62,120 bases of DNA from Anaerolineae bacterium (lineage in GTDB: Bacteria; Chloroflexota; Anaerolineae; UBA1429): positions 1 through 62,120 of the forward strand of contig JAWLEV010000004.1 of assembly GCA_041685915.1 (NCBI GenBank). The letters are read 5' to 3'. Below, piece after piece: positions 20,573 to 27,495 of the stretch. A model generated the notes under the pieces. The model ran no database searches and was not told where the DNA came from. It saw only the letters and a program-made list of their open reading frames with translations. A program made the translations under genes and the position numbers. The first letter of the stretch is position 1. The number at the start of each line of letters is the position of its first letter.

Positions 20573-21304
20573 ATGCAATTATCAGGGGATCGCAACCGTA
20601 TTCTATTGGTGGATGACGAAAAGGCCATAACGGACAATCTGGCTTCCCTCCTGGAGCGCGCCGGATTCGCCGTGGCTGTGGCCGGCGATGGGGAGGAGGC
20701 AATGGAGCGGGCTGCCGCCTTTGCGCCGGACCTGATCGTCCTAGATGTGCTGATGCCCAAACTGAACGGGCGGGAAGTGCTGCGGCGGCTGCGTCAGGAG
20801 GGCGACTGGACCCCTGTGATCCTTCTTACCCAGGTGGGGGAATCCACCGAGCGGGCCATGGCCCTGGAGGAGGGGGCCGACGATTACCTCAACAAGCCCT
20901 TTGATCCCCACGAGTTGATCGCGCGCATCCGGGCCGTGCTGCGCCGCCGGGGCGCGGCTCCCGGGCAAAAGCCGTTGGCGGTGGCGAGCCGACTCCGCGC
21001 TCACGACGTGATCCTCGACCGCACGGCCCGGCAGGTTGAAAGGGGCGGCCGGCCTGTGGAACTCACTTCCAGGGCGGTGGCCCTGCTGGAGTATCTGATG
21101 CTTCATTCTCAGGAGGTGCTGGACCGGGAGCGGCTGCTGGATGCAGTCTGGGGTTGGGACTATGTCGTCGCCACCCGCGCCGTGGACGCTCGGGTGGCCG
21201 AACTGCGTCGCGCCCTCGATGACGATGCCGACGAGCCACGCTTTATCGAGACGGTGGTGGGACAGGGCTATCGCTTTGTGGCCCCTGTGGAGGCGACATC
21301 GTGA
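20573..21304 (+). CDS. OmpR/PhoB family response regulator
   Basis: LLVDDE, LDVLMP, GADDYLNKPF, C-terminal winged helix IETVVGQGY. Confidence 0.95.
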   Translation: MQLSGDRNRILLVDDEKAITDNLASLLERAGFAVAVAGDGEEAMERAAAFAPDLIVLDVLMPKLNGREVLRRLRQEGDWTPVILLTQVGESTERAMALEEGADDYLNKPFDPHELIARIRAVLRRRGAAPGQKPLAVASRLRAHDVILDRTARQVERGGRPVELTSRAVALLEYLMLHSQEVLDRERLLDAVWGWDYVVATRAVDARVAELRRALDDDADEPRFIETVVGQGYRFVAPVEATS

Positions 21305-22227
21305 ATGGCGGGCGATGGCGGAGGTGGTGGCCCTTGGCGGCGAGCCTGGCTCCGCTCATGCTGGGGTTGCTGGTGGCGTTGCTCTGGCAGTCCGGCCTCT
21401 TTCCCGATCCGCTGCTGACCTTTCGGCTGCGCGCCGACGTGGGGAGTCTGTTCCTGCTGCTCGGGGCGTTGCTCACATTGCTGGCCTTGCCGGCTGCAGC
21501 CGTCGCCGTGTACGCCAGGCACCGGCGCGCCCGCGACCTAGAGGCCGCCCGCGCCGCTTGGGCCGACGACCGCCAGCGCTTTTTACGTCGCCTCGACCAC
21601 GAGTTAAAGAACCCCCTCACCGCCCTCCGTGCGGGGCTGGCCAACCTGGTCTCCCTCGACGATGGCCCCGAACGGGACGCCGCCCAGGCCAGCGTGGAGA
21701 CGCAACTGATGCGCCTGAACCGCCTGGTCGGTGATCTGCGTAAACTCGTGGAACTGGAGCAGCGGCCCCTGGAGCGGGCGCCCGTGGACGTGGGCGCGCT
21801 GCTGACCGAGGTGGTCGAGCTGGCGAGGGAGACGCCCGACCGCCAGGTCTCCCTCGCCCTGCCTCAGGCCCCCTGGCCGCTGCCGCCCGCATCCGGCGAC
21901 CAGGATCTGATCTTTTTGGCCTGTTACAACCTGGTGGATAACGCCTGCAAGTTCACCTGTCCCGGCGACGCCATTGAGGTACGCGCCTTTGAGGATGATC
22001 GTTGGATCGTCGTCGAGGTGGCTGATACCGGCCCCGGCATCCCCGTGGAGGATCTCTCCCACATTTTTGAGGAGCTGTATCGCGGTGATGCCGCCCGCGC
22101 GGTGGAGGGCAGCGGGTTGGGACTGGCGCTGGTGCGCGCTGTGGCTCGTCACCACGGCGGCAGCGTGACCGTGCGCAGCCGCAAGGGCGAGGGCACCGCC
22201 TTTACCCTGCGCCTCCCGATGGCCTAG
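21301..22227 (+). CDS. Sensor histidine kinase, 2 TM with short loop
   Basis: HELKNPL, NLVDNA, DTGPGI, GSGLGL; 4-nt overlap with the regulator. Confidence 0.93.
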   Translation: MNGGRWRRWWPLAASLAPLMLGLLVALLWQSGLFPDPLLTFRLRADVGSLFLLLGALLTLLALPAAAVAVYARHRRARDLEAARAAWADDRQRFLRRLDHELKNPLTALRAGLANLVSLDDGPERDAAQASVETQLMRLNRLVGDLRKLVELEQRPLERAPVDVGALLTEVVELARETPDRQVSLALPQAPWPLPPASGDQDLIFLACYNLVDNACKFTCPGDAIEVRAFEDDRWIVVEVADTGPGIPVEDLSHIFEELYRGDAARAVEGSGLGLALVRAVARHHGGSVTVRSRKGEGTAFTLRLPMA

Positions 22228-22337: not shown

Positions 22338-22919
22338 ATGGACCCCAAGCAGGAGCGAGCGCTACTGAGACGCGCCCGGAACGATCCCCAGGCCTTGCGA
22401 GCGCTGTACGATCACTACTTTCCTAAGGTGTATGCCTATACGAGTTACCGCGTAGGGCGGGTGCAGGATGCGGAGGATATCGTTGCCGACGTATTTCTGA
22501 CAGCGGTCGATAAACTGGATATGTTTCGGTGGCGCGGAGAGGGCTCCTTTGCCGCCTGGCTCTTTCGTATCGCTCGCAACCGGGTGAGCGACTTTTACCG
22601 GCGCGGGCGGGGCTCTGAGGAGGGGGTCGCCCTGGAGGATCTGCCCTGTCTGGCGTCCAGTGCCCTACTTCCGGCCGATGCCATCGCGCGGAAGGAGAGG
22701 TTCGCCCACCTGCGGCGCCTGATTGACACGCTGTCGCCTCGACGCCGTGAGGTGATCCTTCTCAGGTTCTTTGGGGGCCTGCGGAACAAGGAAATCGCCG
22801 CCCTGCTGGAGTTGGACGAGCGTACCGTGGCCTCGCACCTGTGTCGGGGATTGAGAGATCTGCACCGCCAATATGTGGATGAGGAAAAGAGGGAGGTGCC
22901 CCATGAGCAAGGAGTATGA
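22338..22919 (+). CDS. ECF sigma factor
   Basis: DAEDIVADVF, FAAWLFRIARN, NKEIAALL, TVASHLCRG. Confidence 0.92.
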   Translation: MDPKQERALLRRARNDPQALRALYDHYFPKVYAYTSYRVGRVQDAEDIVADVFLTAVDKLDMFRWRGEGSFAAWLFRIARNRVSDFYRRGRGSEEGVALEDLPCLASSALLPADAIARKERFAHLRRLIDTLSPRRREVILLRFFGGLRNKEIAALLELDERTVASHLCRGLRDLHRQYVDEEKREVPHEQGV

Positions 22920-24171
22920 GTTGACGGAGCAGGATCGCATGTTGTTGGAGGAAATTGAGGAGAGCCTCGCCGATGGCGAGGGACGCGAGGAGGGGGCGCT
23001 GCATGGCCTTGGCGTTCGACTGGCCAGCACTGTGCCCCGGGCCGACGACGCTTTCCGAGAGCGGTTGGCGTCTCGGTTAGTTGCCAGAATGCAACAACGG
23101 ACGGCTCATGAGGCCGACGAGGAGGTTACTGGGAGACGCGGGGCGCGGCGATGGTTCCCCCTTGGCCGCTTGCTTGCACAGATTCCCAGCCCCGCCACCG
23201 GTCTGGGATGGGCCGTTACAGCCTTGATCCTTTGCCTGTTTTTTGGGACGGTGACCTATGCCGTGGTGCCCGCTGTAAGCCGCTTGTTCCAATTGGAGGA
23301 CGGTTTGCAGCACGTCGAGCAGGCCGATTTGGTGCAGGAACTTGATCTGAGCCAGACGATGCACGGTGTCACTGTCACCCTGGAACGGGCCTACGCTGAT
23401 GCTAACCGTATCGTCGTGGACTATACCGTAAAACATCCCGACGACCAGCGGTATGAGGCGAGTCGCCTGACACTCACCGATGCGGACGGCAACGTCTTTC
23501 CCAGGACGGTGGGATGGGGCGCGTCTGGTCGATCCGATCTCTTCGGAATCGAACTCCCAGAGGGAGAAGGAAACTATGTGAATTCCTTCGATGCCGCCAG
23601 TGTAAAGGGAGCGCCAGCGGAATTGGATTTGCGGCTGGCGATGGAGTTGAGGGAGTTTGTTCTGCCCACTGACACGCCAGGTACCTCTGTCGGTTCATCG
23701 AGTGCCCCGGCGGAGCCCGCGGAGCCCATGGTGGTGGAACTGGAGCCCATGCCCCAGGGGGACGTCGTTGGGACCTTTGCCTTTGACTTTAGCGTGCCCT
23801 TTATTCCCGGACGTGTGGTCGAGGTGGACCAGACTGTGGAAACTGCCGGGGTTGCTATGCGCCTGGAGCGGGTGGTGGTAACTCCTTCGGAGGCGAGGGC
23901 CTACTTGCGTTTCGATCCACCGACCGAAGTGGAGACGAGCTGGACGTCCATCGTGACGCTCAGAGCACCTGACGATAGGAAGACACGAGGCGACTTCTAT
24001 GCCGTCGCCGACGATTCACCTGTCCACGTATATGGTTTCCCGGCACCGCTCCACGAGCGGCAAGGCGAGTGGACGCTGAAGGTGACCGAACTGGTGGGGA
24101 CCGAGTTGGTGCCTCCATACGAACAGGTGCGGCTGGCTGGGCCGTGGGAGTTTCGCTTCCGCGTGCCGTAG
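22903..24171 (+). CDS. Membrane-anchored anti-sigma factor with DUF4179-like extracytoplasmic domains
   Basis: Overlaps the sigma gene; single TM; SQTMHGVTVTLERAYADANRI and GPWEFRF pattern; GGAGG RBS. Confidence 0.7.
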   Translation: MSKEYELTEQDRMLLEEIEESLADGEGREEGALHGLGVRLASTVPRADDAFRERLASRLVARMQQRTAHEADEEVTGRRGARRWFPLGRLLAQIPSPATGLGWAVTALILCLFFGTVTYAVVPAVSRLFQLEDGLQHVEQADLVQELDLSQTMHGVTVTLERAYADANRIVVDYTVKHPDDQRYEASRLTLTDADGNVFPRTVGWGASGRSDLFGIELPEGEGNYVNSFDAASVKGAPAELDLRLAMELREFVLPTDTPGTSVGSSSAPAEPAEPMVVELEPMPQGDVVGTFAFDFSVPFIPGRVVEVDQTVETAGVAMRLERVVVTPSEARAYLRFDPPTEVETSWTSIVTLRAPDDRKTRGDFYAVADDSPVHVYGFPAPLHERQGEWTLKVTELVGTELVPPYEQVRLAGPWEFRFRVP

Positions 24172-24220
24172 CAGGTTAGAGGCGTTGGTGTTCGCGTATG
24201 CCGAACCCGGGACGGCTAGC

Positions 24221-24309
24221 TCTCAGCGACCTATGTAACGAGATTGTAACACTGTGTGACGAGGTGGTTACCATCCCATCATACGGTGTTACGGGGTATG
24301 TGGTACACT
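24221..24309 (+). repeat. 89-bp direct repeat copy 1 (promoter element)
   Basis: 81/89 identical to 25283-25371; ends in TGGTACACT extended -10. Confidence 0.92.
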
Positions 24310-24337
24310 ATGACTGCCGGAACACGGGAGGGGAAGG

Positions 24338-25165
24338 ATGACAGCTCATAAAGTGACGCGAACGTTCCTGGAAGAAGCTGCCCGGGCGATGGCGATCCTT
24401 GCCATCCTGTTCTTTGGCGGCGTCGCGCCCCTGGTATCTCTGTTCGGTCTGCGGTTTTGGCCCACACTCCTCGGCGTGATGGGTGTAGCCCTAGTGGTGT
24501 TTGTCGTGATGATCGCGATGCGTCTCAGAACCGGTCGCGGGGTCAAGCTGCGATGGCATCGCTTAGGCCTGTTCGTCGTTGGGACGTTGGGCCTGAGTCT
24601 GCTGTCCCTGTGGCTGTCCGGGCCCACGGCGGGAGGCGCCCTGCGGGCTAGCCTCGTGGAGCGCATCCGCGGCGAGACGCCTGAGGCCCGAATCGAGGCC
24701 TACGTGGACGCAGTCCTGCGCGGTGATGAGGCCGCCGCGCTGGCGGCATGGAAGGTGCCGGCCGAGGACGGCGCCGACGAACAAAGCAATCTCCTCCGCC
24801 AACGGCGGCAGGAGGTGACGCGCACGCTCATCGCCGCCGACCTCGATAGCGAGTATATGATCACGCGCACCGAGTGGTGGCGCACCTGCTGCGAGCCTGG
24901 CGTGACGTGTGACCCGCGCAGCGCCGGGGGCGCGCGGGTGCGCGTCCAGTTCCTGGATCAGGATGGCTTGCCGGTCACCTACGTCTTTGACGTCTTCCAT
25001 CAGGATGGCGCCTACTGGGGGGCTGCGGCGGGCTATCCACCAAGACGGTGGGCGCTCCGCGACGTCTACCCTCGGGGCGAGGAGCCCCTCTACTGGCGAT
25101 GGGTCTATACACCTAGGGTGGAACACCTGGGCTGGCCGCCCGGCGCTGCGGCAGCGGTGCCGTGA
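24338..25165 (+). CDS. Hypothetical membrane protein (3 TM plus soluble domain with WWRTCCEPGVTC motif)
   Basis: ORF with RBS, hydrophobic N-terminus, preceded by repeat copy 1. Confidence 0.7.
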   Translation: MTAHKVTRTFLEEAARAMAILAILFFGGVAPLVSLFGLRFWPTLLGVMGVALVVFVVMIAMRLRTGRGVKLRWHRLGLFVVGTLGLSLLSLWLSGPTAGGALRASLVERIRGETPEARIEAYVDAVLRGDEAAALAAWKVPAEDGADEQSNLLRQRRQEVTRTLIAADLDSEYMITRTEWWRTCCEPGVTCDPRSAGGARVRVQFLDQDGLPVTYVFDVFHQDGAYWGAAAGYPPRRWALRDVYPRGEEPLYWRWVYTPRVEHLGWPPGAAAAVP

Positions 25166-25282
25166 GGACGGTGGGCAATCTGGCCGACTACAATCGCCGT
25201 GTAGGAGGGCCTTCCCCCTGGCAGCCTACCTCTTGGCGGACGATAAGGCGGCCGATAGAGTTGTACAGCAGGCAGGGTTGGT

Positions 25283-25371
25283 TCTCACCGACCTATGTAA
25301 CGAGACTGTAACACCGTGTGACGAGGTGGTTACCATCCCATCATACGGTGTTACACGTTATGTGATATACT
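25283..25371 (+). repeat. 89-bp direct repeat copy 2 (promoter element)
   Basis: 81/89 identical to 24221-24309; ends in TGATATACT extended -10. Confidence 0.92.
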
Positions 25372-25422
25372 GGCTATCGAAAAAGGGAGGGATTGAAGGG
25401 TTCCAGTTGAGGAGATTCTGGC

Positions 25423-27495
25423 ATGAAGCGACGGTCATTAGGGGAGTGGTTAACGGGTCTGGGGCTGTTGGTGGCGTTTTTGTCTCTAGCGGCCGCCTGT
25501 GGGGACACGCTCGACCTGGCGGTGGAGACCGCGCCGGCGGCCGAGGCGACCATCACCGCATTAGAACGGGAGAAATCTCAACTGGCCACCAAGGTGGCCC
25601 ACCACGAGTCCCGCCTGGGACGGTTGGCCTACGTTCAGGGGGGCGACATTTGGGTCAAGGGGTTGCCCGATGGGGAGCCGCAGCGCCTGACCACGGACGG
25701 GCACAACAGCGAGCCACGGTGGTCGCCCTCGGGCCAGTGGTTGGCCTTCCGCCGGGGAGATTTCAATCGCGTCTGGATCATGCGGGAGGATGGTGTGGCT
25801 GCCCGTCAGGCAAACCAGGGGCGTCCCGTGGATGCCTTTGCCTGGTCGCCGGTGGAAGACCATCTGGCCTACGTCGATGCGTCTAATGGTGCATTGTGCG
25901 TGCAGGACGCGGATGCAGAGCAGTCAGAGGCGCTGGTGCGCGAGGTTGGGGAGGATTCGCCGACGCCCCCGGAGAGGGAACGCGGCGTCACGGAGATCGC
26001 CTGGAGCATGGACGGCACCCGCATCGCGTACACCCTGTTCGAGCATCCACAGCAGGCGGGGGAAAACGCCGGTCCACCAAGTTATCAGGGGTTGTGGGTC
26101 GTCCCGGCAGGGGGCGGCGAGCCGGAAGAGATCTATGACAGTGGGGTGCCGGAGCGGGGGATGGTTCATCTTTATGGTTGGACGGTGGATGGCGGTCACG
26201 TCCTGTTCTGGCAGGGAGAAACGCTCTCGGCCTCGATGCTGGCCGATGGCATTCCCCTCCATGCCCTGCCCGCGGACGGGGGCGGGGCGACACAGTTGAC
26301 CGATGCCGTCCTCTTACACCAGGACTTTGTGGCGCCGTTCCCCGCTGGCTTTCGCGTCGCCGTCGTCGCAGGCGCCGGGCGGATGACCTGGACCAACAAA
26401 CGCATCGCGGTCGTGGAGCCTGAGAGCGGGGAGGTCACTTACCTCACCTCCGAGGATGTGGTGGCCCTCTCCCCCGTGTGGTCTCCGGATGGCACCCATC
26501 TGGTCTACTCAGCCATGCCTGAGGAGGAAGATCTGGTGGGCGGGGAGGTGGCTCGGGAGGCGATGATGGGCCGCAGGCTCTGGATGATCGATGCGGACGG
26601 CAGGGAGGCTGAGAAACTGACCGACGATTCCGATTACCGCGACGAGCGTCCCCTGTGGTCGGCCGACGGCTCGCACCTCCTCTTCGCCCGCTTTGACGCC
26701 GAGGATCGCGCCTCCCTGTGGCTCGTGCCACTGGAGGCTGGCGAGCCGCAGCAGGTGGTGGAGGAACTGACCCCGGCGCCAGAGTGGTTCGGCAATTACG
26801 GTCACATCGCCTGGCATCAATGCTTTGATTGGTGGCGCGGCGAGGCCCGTCCCATGACGGCAGCAACGGCGACACCTGGGCAAACGCCAACTCGGACGCC
26901 AGCCGAGACGCCGCGGGCGAAATACGCCCCTCCATCGCTGATGGAGACCCCTCTACCCTATGCTATCTCCCTACAGGCCTACGACGGTCCGGGCTTCTCG
27001 TTTCAGTATCCGGCCCATGCCCAGGTGGAAGCGGTCGATCCGGAGGTGCCTGCGGCGACCGAGATACGCGTCAATGGCCCCGTCGTGTGTATCAAACTAG
27101 GTGATGCGGACTGGTCATACAATGGTGAAGCCTACCAGCTGACCGTACGCACGTTTGAGAATCCAGAGGGGCTGGACGCGGAGTCGTGGGCACGGGATTA
27201 CGTCCTCGTGCGTTGGCAGGAGGCCAGAGAGCGAGACCGACCCACGGGGTCGTTGCCGGTGACGGAGGAGGGGGCGATTCAAGAGGATAAAGTGGGACAC
27301 CACATCGTGGCTGGTCAGCCTGCATTTTGGGTCAGGTACTTTTGGTTTGATTCTACCTATTGGGCGTTCTATCTGACCGTCGAGGACCGCATTGTGGAGC
27401 TGAGCTTCCTCAACTACCCGCTGGCCAACCAGCCATTAGCCGTGGTACAACAGGATATCTATGCGTTGATCATAGATACCTTTCAGCTTGATTGA
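25423..27495 (+). CDS. TolB-like (PD40/WD40 propeller) lipoprotein with C-terminal PsbP-like domain
   Basis: LAAAC lipobox; PRWSPSG, AWSP, AWSMDG, VWSPDG, LWSADG repeats; Thr/Pro linker; GFSFQYP. Confidence 0.8.
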   Translation: MKRRSLGEWLTGLGLLVAFLSLAAACGDTLDLAVETAPAAEATITALEREKSQLATKVAHHESRLGRLAYVQGGDIWVKGLPDGEPQRLTTDGHNSEPRWSPSGQWLAFRRGDFNRVWIMREDGVAARQANQGRPVDAFAWSPVEDHLAYVDASNGALCVQDADAEQSEALVREVGEDSPTPPERERGVTEIAWSMDGTRIAYTLFEHPQQAGENAGPPSYQGLWVVPAGGGEPEEIYDSGVPERGMVHLYGWTVDGGHVLFWQGETLSASMLADGIPLHALPADGGGATQLTDAVLLHQDFVAPFPAGFRVAVVAGAGRMTWTNKRIAVVEPESGEVTYLTSEDVVALSPVWSPDGTHLVYSAMPEEEDLVGGEVAREAMMGRRLWMIDADGREAEKLTDDSDYRDERPLWSADGSHLLFARFDAEDRASLWLVPLEAGEPQQVVEELTPAPEWFGNYGHIAWHQCFDWWRGEARPMTAATATPGQTPTRTPAETPRAKYAPPSLMETPLPYAISLQAYDGPGFSFQYPAHAQVEAVDPEVPAATEIRVNGPVVCIKLGDADWSYNGEAYQLTVRTFENPEGLDAESWARDYVLVRWQEARERDRPTGSLPVTEEGAIQEDKVGHHIVAGQPAFWVRYFWFDSTYWAFYLTVEDRIVELSFLNYPLANQPLAVVQQDIYALIIDTFQLD

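Follow-up and report, generated by a model that had tools for sequence, protein, structure and literature searches.

A duplicated, putatively response-regulator-dependent promoter beside an OmpR/PhoB-type two-component system in an Anaerolineae bacterium

At the ompF and ompC promoters OmpR occupies contiguous, 10-bp-phased sites (F1-F3 and C1-C3) from about -100 to -40, which a single regulator reads in a graded manner, and PhoB boxes end ~10 bp upstream of the -10 hexamer. Here we describe an 89-bp element with phased hexamers that occurs twice in a genome of the Anaerolineae, a class known almost wholly from uncultured genomes and one for which we know of no described regulatory sites; a full-text literature search combining Anaerolineae, OmpR and promoter returned nothing related. 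The window, by which we mean the whole 62,120-nt stretch of DNA analysed (contig JAWLEV010000004.1 of assembly GCA_041685915.1, positions 1 to 62,120; contig C79 in our numbering), is part of a genome of 2,815,145 bases in 170 contigs (G000). Copy A of the element (24221-24309, + strand) precedes gene A, which encodes a membrane protein, and copy B (25283-25371, + strand) precedes gene B, which encodes a lipoprotein. From the arrangement of the sites and their recurrence in other families, it is likely that both copies are target promoters of the OmpR/PhoB-type two-component system encoded at 20573-22227, promoters that have no -35 hexamer and would depend on the response regulator. Compared with the ompF and ompC arrays, which stop upstream of a recognisable -35, the last site here overlaps the -35 position; the likeness is one of layout.

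As in PhoB promoters, which exemplify class II activation, the array appears to replace the -35 hexamer and ends ~10 bp upstream of the -10. Further similarities to pho boxes include direct hexamer or heptamer repeats with an 11-bp period, the adjacent regulator gene, and a first hexamer pair (H1-H2) close to the PhoB box as quoted in PMC4168254. The locus differs in that five to six phased positions extend over ~60 bp instead of one or two boxes, the proximal hexamer is inverted when its flanks are counted, the targets are envelope proteins and not phosphate genes, and the window regulator scores 195.9 bits against a PhoB equivalog cut-off of 296.2. The same source quotes the WalR/VicR consensus TGTWAH-N5-TGTWAH, to which TGTAAC-N5-TGTAAC of copies A and B and TGTAAC-N5-TGTTAC of another Anaerolineae family (f43) are exact formal matches (PMC4168254). 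Nonetheless, the window regulator is not a WalR/YycF orthologue (NCBIfam resp_reg_YycF, 183.5 bits against a cut-off of 340), its host is one of the Anaerolineae and not a Firmicute, and the WalR consensus contains nothing equivalent to the further phased hexamers or the conserved CCATAnnGGTGTnACAC block.

Anatomy of the duplicated element

Position-by-position comparison of the two copies gave 8 mismatches in 89 positions (24226, 24244, 24253, 24293, 24294, 24296, 24303 and 24306, copy-A numbering), two of them inside the 66-nt core at 24227-24292, as the original prediction had described. A repeat search traced the similarity weakly to 101 nt (24209-24309 and 25271-25371, 87%). None of the mismatches falls in a hexamer, in the TG or at a key position of the -10. 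Four phased pentamers had also been predicted, and copy A carries them at 24235 (GTAAC), 24246 (GTAAC), 24256 (GTGAC) and 24267 (GTTAC), in steps of 11, 10 and 11 bp, together with a fifth (GTTAC) at 24288. The inner GTGAC and GTTAC proved less constant than the rest, and are replaced by ATGGC and ATTAC in the congeneric genome G002. On the + strand, the corresponding hexamers occupy 24234-24239 (H1), 24245-24250 (H2), 24255-24260 (H3), 24266-24271 (H4) and 24287-24292 (H6) in copy A, and 25296-25301, 25307-25312, 25317-25322, 25328-25333 and 25349-25354 in copy B.

The predicted core promoter follows on the same strand. TRTG (24299-24302 in copy A, 25361-25364 in copy B) is succeeded by the -10 hexamer, TACACT at 24304-24309 and TATACT at 25366-25371, so that both copies end in TGnTAyACT (24301-24309 and 25363-25371). 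A consensus scan of both copies found no TTGACA-like hexamer at the proper distance from the -10, and the combination of an extended -10 and a missing -35 thus agrees with what had been read from the sequence at first. The element ends 28 nt (copy A) or 51 nt (copy B) before a start codon, with a Shine-Dalgarno sequence in between. Other promoters in this genome are of the TTGACA / TGnTATAAT kind.

Neither BLAST nor a three-sequence profile search detected a third copy of the element in the 2,815,145-base genome. The spacing of its first two repeats is itself uncommon. GTAAC-N6-GTAAC occurs six times genome-wide, against ~0.6 expected by our own estimate from 1,880 GTAAC/GTTAC counts, and the neighbouring spacings N4, N5, N7 and N8 gave 2, 0, 0 and 1 pairs; TGTWAH-N5-TGTWAH, the pattern that TGTAAC-N5-TGTAAC of both copies fits, has only four matches in the genome. 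A weak likeness to the left half of the element, without the right arm of its palindrome, was seen at C4:16951-16980 (- strand; TGTCACACCGTATGCGGCGATGATGG; nhmmer E 4.6), which is at chance level; it sits ~70 nt upstream of an open reading frame (ORF).

Conservation beside a two-component system

The original prediction had suggested a search of the genome and of relatives. When the 89-nt element was used in BLAST searches of 61 relatives, G002 was the sole match. With the scans of our sequence collections, this initially suggested that the element was restricted to the genus, a view that was overturned by searches anchored on gene B. In the collection scans, the arm pattern GTAACACYGT-N17-37-ACGGTGTTAC matched 30 loci in the genome collection and 71 in the metagenome collection; only L071, on the contig of G002, resembled the element beyond the pattern, and the rest were unrelated GTAACAC-rich repeats. 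Among these, L098, L120, L152, L112 and others are dense, iteron- or satellite-like GTAACAC/GTGTTAC arrays in unrelated genomes and metagenome contigs. Allowing up to two mismatches, TGTAACGAGATTGTWAC gave 124 matches in the 401 genomes of the class, and a reversed-pattern control gave ~86 (hand count), which indicates that most are noise. Exact matches occurred in G000, G100, G350, G388, G311 and G219, and those of G100, G388, G311 and G219 are copies of the element. One of the listed matches is from G371, a genome marked as unpublished, and none of our conclusions depends on it.

In other families the element is found between a two-component system and a homologue of gene B. Contig C262 of G219 carries, in order, a gene A homologue, the response regulator gene, the histidine kinase gene, the motif TGTAACGAGATTGTTAC...CTCGTTAC...TGGTATAAT and the gene B homologue, and the same motif lies upstream of gene B homologues in G311, G388, G267 and G100. 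Orthologues of the window regulator (63-69% identity) and kinase (~65%) end right at the element, upstream of a gene B homologue, in G219, G311 and G267 (tblastn), and in other families the kinase stop codon abuts the first hexamer. When 20 gene B loci were fetched, regulator and kinase genes were adjacent in 11 and a kinase gene alone in two. An in-register promoter was also seen on G146:C127 (L255, ~1221, minus strand) before a lipoprotein-like gene with at least four tandem repeats of ~100 residues; no response regulator, kinase, gene A or gene B lies within 2.7 kb of it.

To compare architecture, 18 promoter copies were aligned without gaps on the -10 hexamer, with the G100 copy re-anchored by 5 nt. 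The hexamers share columns in 15 of the 18, namely the three copies of the window's own genus and 12 from families f43, f19, f9, f48, f52, f24, f6 and f26. The consensus reads TGTaaC..GATTGTtACA..aTGTTTCG..TtGTtAC..CATAc..GTnAC..TGgTAnnAT, in which H1 (TGTaaC) occupies columns 23-28, H2 (TTGTtACA) 33-40, H3 (aTGTTTCG) 43-50, H4 (TtGTtAC) 54-60, a CATAc block 69-73, H6 (GTnAC) 77-81, the TG 90-91 and the -10 (TAnnAT) 93-98. The inner H3 and H4 columns hold hexamers in most other families, although they are not kept as pentamers in G002. The hexamer step is ~10.5 bp, the extended -10 across copies is TRTGnTAnnnT, and the distance from the end of H6 to the -10 is 11 nt in the window's genus and 10 nt in other families. 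The autocorrelation of information content was 0.39 at lag 11 and 0.42 at lag 21, compared with -0.26 to 0.23 at the other lags between 5 and 24. A profile hidden Markov model built from 11 out-of-genus copies and run against the whole window genome ranked copy A first (E 1.3e-5) and copy B second (E 8.1e-5), the next match outside these two being at E 2.3. The ranking shows that the copies are homologous to those of other families, and it points to a regulon made up of two promoters in the window genome.

With the regulator and kinase genes beside it, the in-register copies and the recovery of A and B by the out-of-genus profile, the original suggestion of an activator-dependent promoter of the OmpR family gains support from comparative sequence data. 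The core promoter would be of the housekeeping-sigma type, with the extended -10 TRTGnTAyACT and no -35 hexamer. TGTnnC/GTnAC hexamers would line one face of the helix in ~10.5-bp steps from about -82 to -24 of the predicted start, and the last of them, 10-11 nt before the -10, would take the position at which PhoB-type boxes substitute for the -35. Once phosphorylated, the regulator would occupy this array and recruit RNA polymerase. We infer binding by the window regulator, activation and the transcription start from this layout, and by analogy with pho boxes we somewhat favour activation over repression. The ancestral arrangement, kept in other families, would be regulator, kinase, promoter and PD40 lipoprotein gene; in the window's genus the sigma/anti-sigma gene pair described below lies between kinase and promoter, and in the window genome duplication of the promoter ahead of gene A would have brought this second envelope gene into the regulon, placing both genes under one signal.

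Several observations weigh against this interpretation. The proximal hexamer, when its flanks are counted, is opposite in orientation to H1 and H2, which is unusual for the head-to-tail binding of OmpR-family proteins and would fit repression too. No such box was found upstream of the window regulator's own gene; three of the 18 aligned copies (G413, G236 and G183) hold hexamer pairs in other registers; and the recognition helices of the OmpR paralogues in the genome are, by eye, too divergent for the box to be assigned by similarity. The palindrome described below has arms that far exceed the length of a typical half-site. Lastly, the four sequencing runs, all in the form of contigs, are uninformative on a start: contigs of the DNA run break inside the repeat, and the RNA-library contigs X6 (25134-25345), X9 (25107-25354) and X10 (25121-25381) span the end of gene A into copy B with little over the body of gene A, their start, strand and level not being readable and DNA carry-over being possible.

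The element is a real yet fairly ordinary regulatory region that will be unsurprising to specialists in two-component systems. It would define one conserved unit in at least nine Anaerolineae families, made of a kinase, an OmpR-type regulator, a phased hexamer array and a PD40/TolB-like lipoprotein, with TGTaaC-N5-TGTtAC plus CCATAnnGGTGTnACAC as predicted binding sites. It would also provide an example of how a regulon may grow, with the duplication of a ~100-bp promoter adding a second envelope gene to the same signal, and a case of lineage-specific palindromisation of a promoter.

The genus-specific palindrome

Superimposed on the array is the inverted repeat of the original prediction, whose mismatches were said to be all compatible with G-U pairing, and this was borne out in both copies. 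In copy A the arms (24246-24259 and 24279-24292, with a 19-nt spacer) form 12 Watson-Crick and two G-T pairs out of 14; in copy B (25308-25321 and 25341-25354) the figures are 13 and one. Outside the genus the repeat is not maintained. In the register of the window genome, 12-13 of 14 positions are Watson-Crick pairs in the three own-genus copies, compared with 2-7 in the 12 copies from other families. Inverted repeats of other lineages, again set between a distal hexamer and H6, measure just 6-9 bp, and in f43 the arms are different ones (by eye). The counterpart of the right arm (TCATACGGTGTTAC) in other families is a conserved block, CCATAnnGGTGTnAC, which makes the left arm the derived side.

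The palindrome is thus, as judged from these alignments, a genus-specific overlay on H2/H3 and the promoter-proximal block. In the window's genus the short inverted repeat seen in other families (TGTTACAC/GTGTAACA) has grown to 13-14 bp, and the palindrome most likely originated through homogenisation of the arms of such a short pre-existing repeat. Homogenisation of quasipalindrome arms by template switching is described as a mutational route in PMC7202029, PMC8604942 and PMC13100816. Our case is alike in that a short repeat is extended in this genus and a different pair of arms in f43; it differs in that the event is deduced from a comparison of few lineages.

It is conceivable, but in our view unlikely, that the palindrome acts as a + strand RNA hairpin, a ~70-nt stem-loop in read-through transcripts from the sigma/anti-sigma operon or from gene A that would process, stabilise or insulate the transcript between cistrons. 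The fold energies are in part suggestive of this. The + strand folds better than the - strand, by 3.7-6.3 kcal/mol, in all three own-genus copies; copy B reaches -35.2 kcal/mol (z -4.0) and the G002 copy a z of -4.9, and all three variable positions of the left arm still pair through G-U, on the + strand only. A scan found no terminator-like site after the anti-sigma gene or gene A, whereas anti-sigma homologues elsewhere are followed by GC hairpins with T runs (by eye). Contigs of three RNA libraries link the end of gene A to copy B, although these bridging contigs may be DNA carry-over. However, the fold of copy A is unremarkable (-29.2 kcal/mol on the + strand and -22.9 on the - strand; z -1.8, with 8 of 200 shuffles as good), and G002 does not keep the inner stem. 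The hairpin is specific to the genus, whereas the hexamer positions and the -10 are conserved outside it; the conserved -10 is positioned downstream of the hairpin; and H2/H3 with the ancestral proximal block already account for the conservation of the arms. The structured-RNA alternative raised with the original prediction therefore finds no backing outside the genus. Two related candidates were rejected. There is no terminator-like site at the element, where the stem is followed by ACGTTATGTG or GGGGTATGTG and by no T run, which removes an intrinsic terminator. An Rfam search returned only miRNA-hairpin noise (at most 21.3 bits against gathering scores of 67-109, E at least 1.3).

A role for the hairpin within the genus is similarly doubtful, and so is a second control layer, in which the genus promoter would have been remodelled into a 47-nt palindrome of ~20 pairs that forms a cruciform or folds in read-through RNA. 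Such a layer may act as a supercoiling-sensitive switch, or may insulate the envelope genes, so that they are uncoupled from the sigma/anti-sigma operon that precedes them in G000 and G002. If it exists, an independent palindromisation in f43 would point to recurrent selection for hairpin-capable versions of the promoter. As a separate observation in f43 (G219), the leaders of the gene A and gene B homologues (L231, 106-158 and 2748-2800) share 53 nt at 77% identity, with a hairpin CCATCGG-N4-CCGATGG and a Shine-Dalgarno sequence, and similar leaders occur in G132 and G100; the promoter would then be followed by a second shared element, post-transcriptional in appearance.

Alternatively, the inverted repeat could be the operator of a separate dimeric or tetrameric repressor, which would bind two half-sites of 13-14 bp set 33 bp apart and occlude the -35 region. 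The right arm does span about -37 to -24, the spacer keeps a length of 19 nt in G000 and G002 while its sequence changes, and other lineages carry different inverted repeats between the distal and proximal hexamers. We hold this to be improbable, considering that half-sites of this size are unusually long, that the palindrome sequence is not conserved beyond the genus while the phased hexamers are, and that inspection of eight neighbouring genes identified no DNA-binding protein other than the response regulator and the extracytoplasmic function (ECF) sigma factor.

Neighbouring genes and duplication history

The window order is response regulator, histidine kinase, ECF sigma factor, anti-sigma protein, copy A, gene A, copy B and gene B, then a convergent hflX. 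The response regulator (20573-21304, + strand) is of the OmpR/PhoB family (Pfam Response_reg 1.1e-31, Trans_reg_C 1.1e-25) and is the candidate binder of the hexamer array; an NCBIfam scan matched no equivalog at its cut-off. Its partner kinase (21301-22227, + strand) carries HisKA and HATPase_c domains (Pfam). The ECF sigma factor (22338-22919, + strand; Pfam Sigma70_r2, r4_2 and Sigma70_ECF) is 82% identical in G002 and is followed by a DUF4179 anti-sigma-like membrane protein (22873-24171, + strand; Pfam DUF4179 1.2e-11). Homologues of the latter are patchy, being present in 42 of 401 class genomes and, within the genus, found in G000 and G002 only. The pair (22338-24171) separates the kinase gene from the target promoter only in these two genomes, which, given the patchy distribution, is consistent with an insertion.

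A position directly downstream of a sigma/anti-sigma pair is typical for targets of ECF sigma factors, and TGTAAC resembles the -35 of some ECF promoters. The element could on these grounds be read as the target promoter of the adjacent sigma factor, but we regard this as very improbable. In other families the ECF sigma gene is not beside the element, which adjoins the two-component system without it. No AAC...CGT pair occurs at ECF spacing, and a TRTGnTATACT extended -10 precedes the start instead. The sigma gene has a conserved upstream region of its own in G000 and G002, and this region and the element have no motif in common. An anti-sigma-anchored search showed that regions downstream of anti-sigma homologues in other families are without the element, and the link to the sigma/anti-sigma pair was dropped for this reason.

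Gene A (24338-25165, + strand), to which copy A is assigned as promoter, encodes a 275-aa membrane protein of a family without a name that is common in Anaerolineae, with no Pfam match above cut-off and no NCBIfam match. It has 165 relatives in our protein collection, is present in 25 of 401 class genomes, and was not found in the genus members G001-G003; among 27 loci checked, its homologues adjoin the two-component system only in G219. Gene B (25423-27495, + strand), to which copy B is assigned, encodes a 690-aa lipoprotein with PD40/TolB-like beta-propeller repeats (Pfam PD40 3.9e-17), with homologues in 49 of 401 class genomes. Some members of the genus appear to be losing the gene through decay. 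G002 (L006 1342-1449, - strand) retains the promoter and only a 29-codon remnant of the gene B signal peptide, and the reading frame of the G003 homologue (L283/L284, at the start of a contig) is interrupted by one TAG and one TAA.

In G002, a single element copy lies between the anti-sigma gene and this remnant, and neither gene A nor any further gene B was found there. The copy joins the 5' flank of copy A to the 3' flank of copy B, a pattern that fits a recombination event between the repeats in which gene A was lost, although gene A may alternatively have been gained in G000. Between copy B and G002 the 19-nt spacer has 7 differences and the remaining 61 nt have 3; the spacer is the same in A and B. 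The 17-nt 3' segment up to the -10 hexamer (24293-24309, copy-A numbering) is identical in B, G002 and G001, and copy A differs from these at 5 of 17 positions. Since no single tree fits both segments, either gene conversion between A and B or another constraint on the -10 region of copy A is required. In G001, the gene B orthologue is 82% identical; its contig begins within the element, for which reason the left half was not found. What the contig holds of the element is the right arm, changed at one position (T to C), and then the same 3' stretch as copy B.

The presence of gene A, bracketed by both copies, in G000 but not in G002, and the hybrid flanks of the single G002 copy would also fit a model in which the element were an attC-like single-strand recombination site and genes A and B were mobile cassettes, an alternative that accompanied the original prediction. 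The element shares with attC sites an intergenic imperfect palindrome with AAC...GTT ends. We consider this reading highly implausible. The attC core is GTTRRRY, and the ends of the element do not fit it. No tyrosine recombinase is encoded on the 62-kb contig, the three PF00589 matches of the genome being on C156, C31 and C56. The genome holds just two copies, a -10 lies within the conserved unit, and the element is fixed beside the same two-component system and PD40 gene across families. Ordinary homologous recombination, acting on direct repeats of 89-101 bp, accounts for why gene A is present in one genome and absent from another.

Elsewhere in the genome, a second family of boxes, cGTAACC-N4-TTGTAACCTTG, ends 10 nt before TGnTATAMT at C57:8371 (+), C91:3606 (+) and C147:2496 (-), and is also seen in L181 (G001), L253 (G300) and L276 (G101). 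The three GTAAC-N6-GTAAC boxes of the window genome that stand 10 nt upstream of TGnTATAMT, two of them before OmpR-type regulator genes, offer a precedent for the proposed promoter. The regulator genes behind the boxes of C57 and C147 are of the OmpR type, a hint at paralogous two-component systems under autoregulation. Upstream, C91 and C147 also have the block AAAAGAGTAATrAATTAT in common. Tiny ORFs arise from a conserved GGAGGTGTCTATGG... stretch, namely MDD* downstream of anti-sigma homologues (L032 in G370, L033 in G243 and L034 in G219) and MVPWF* after the promoter of C91 and G001, where the stretch lies at ~3720-3750 of C91 and ~1605-1635 of L181. RNA-library contigs of three runs have loose ends resembling this stretch after window position 24169.

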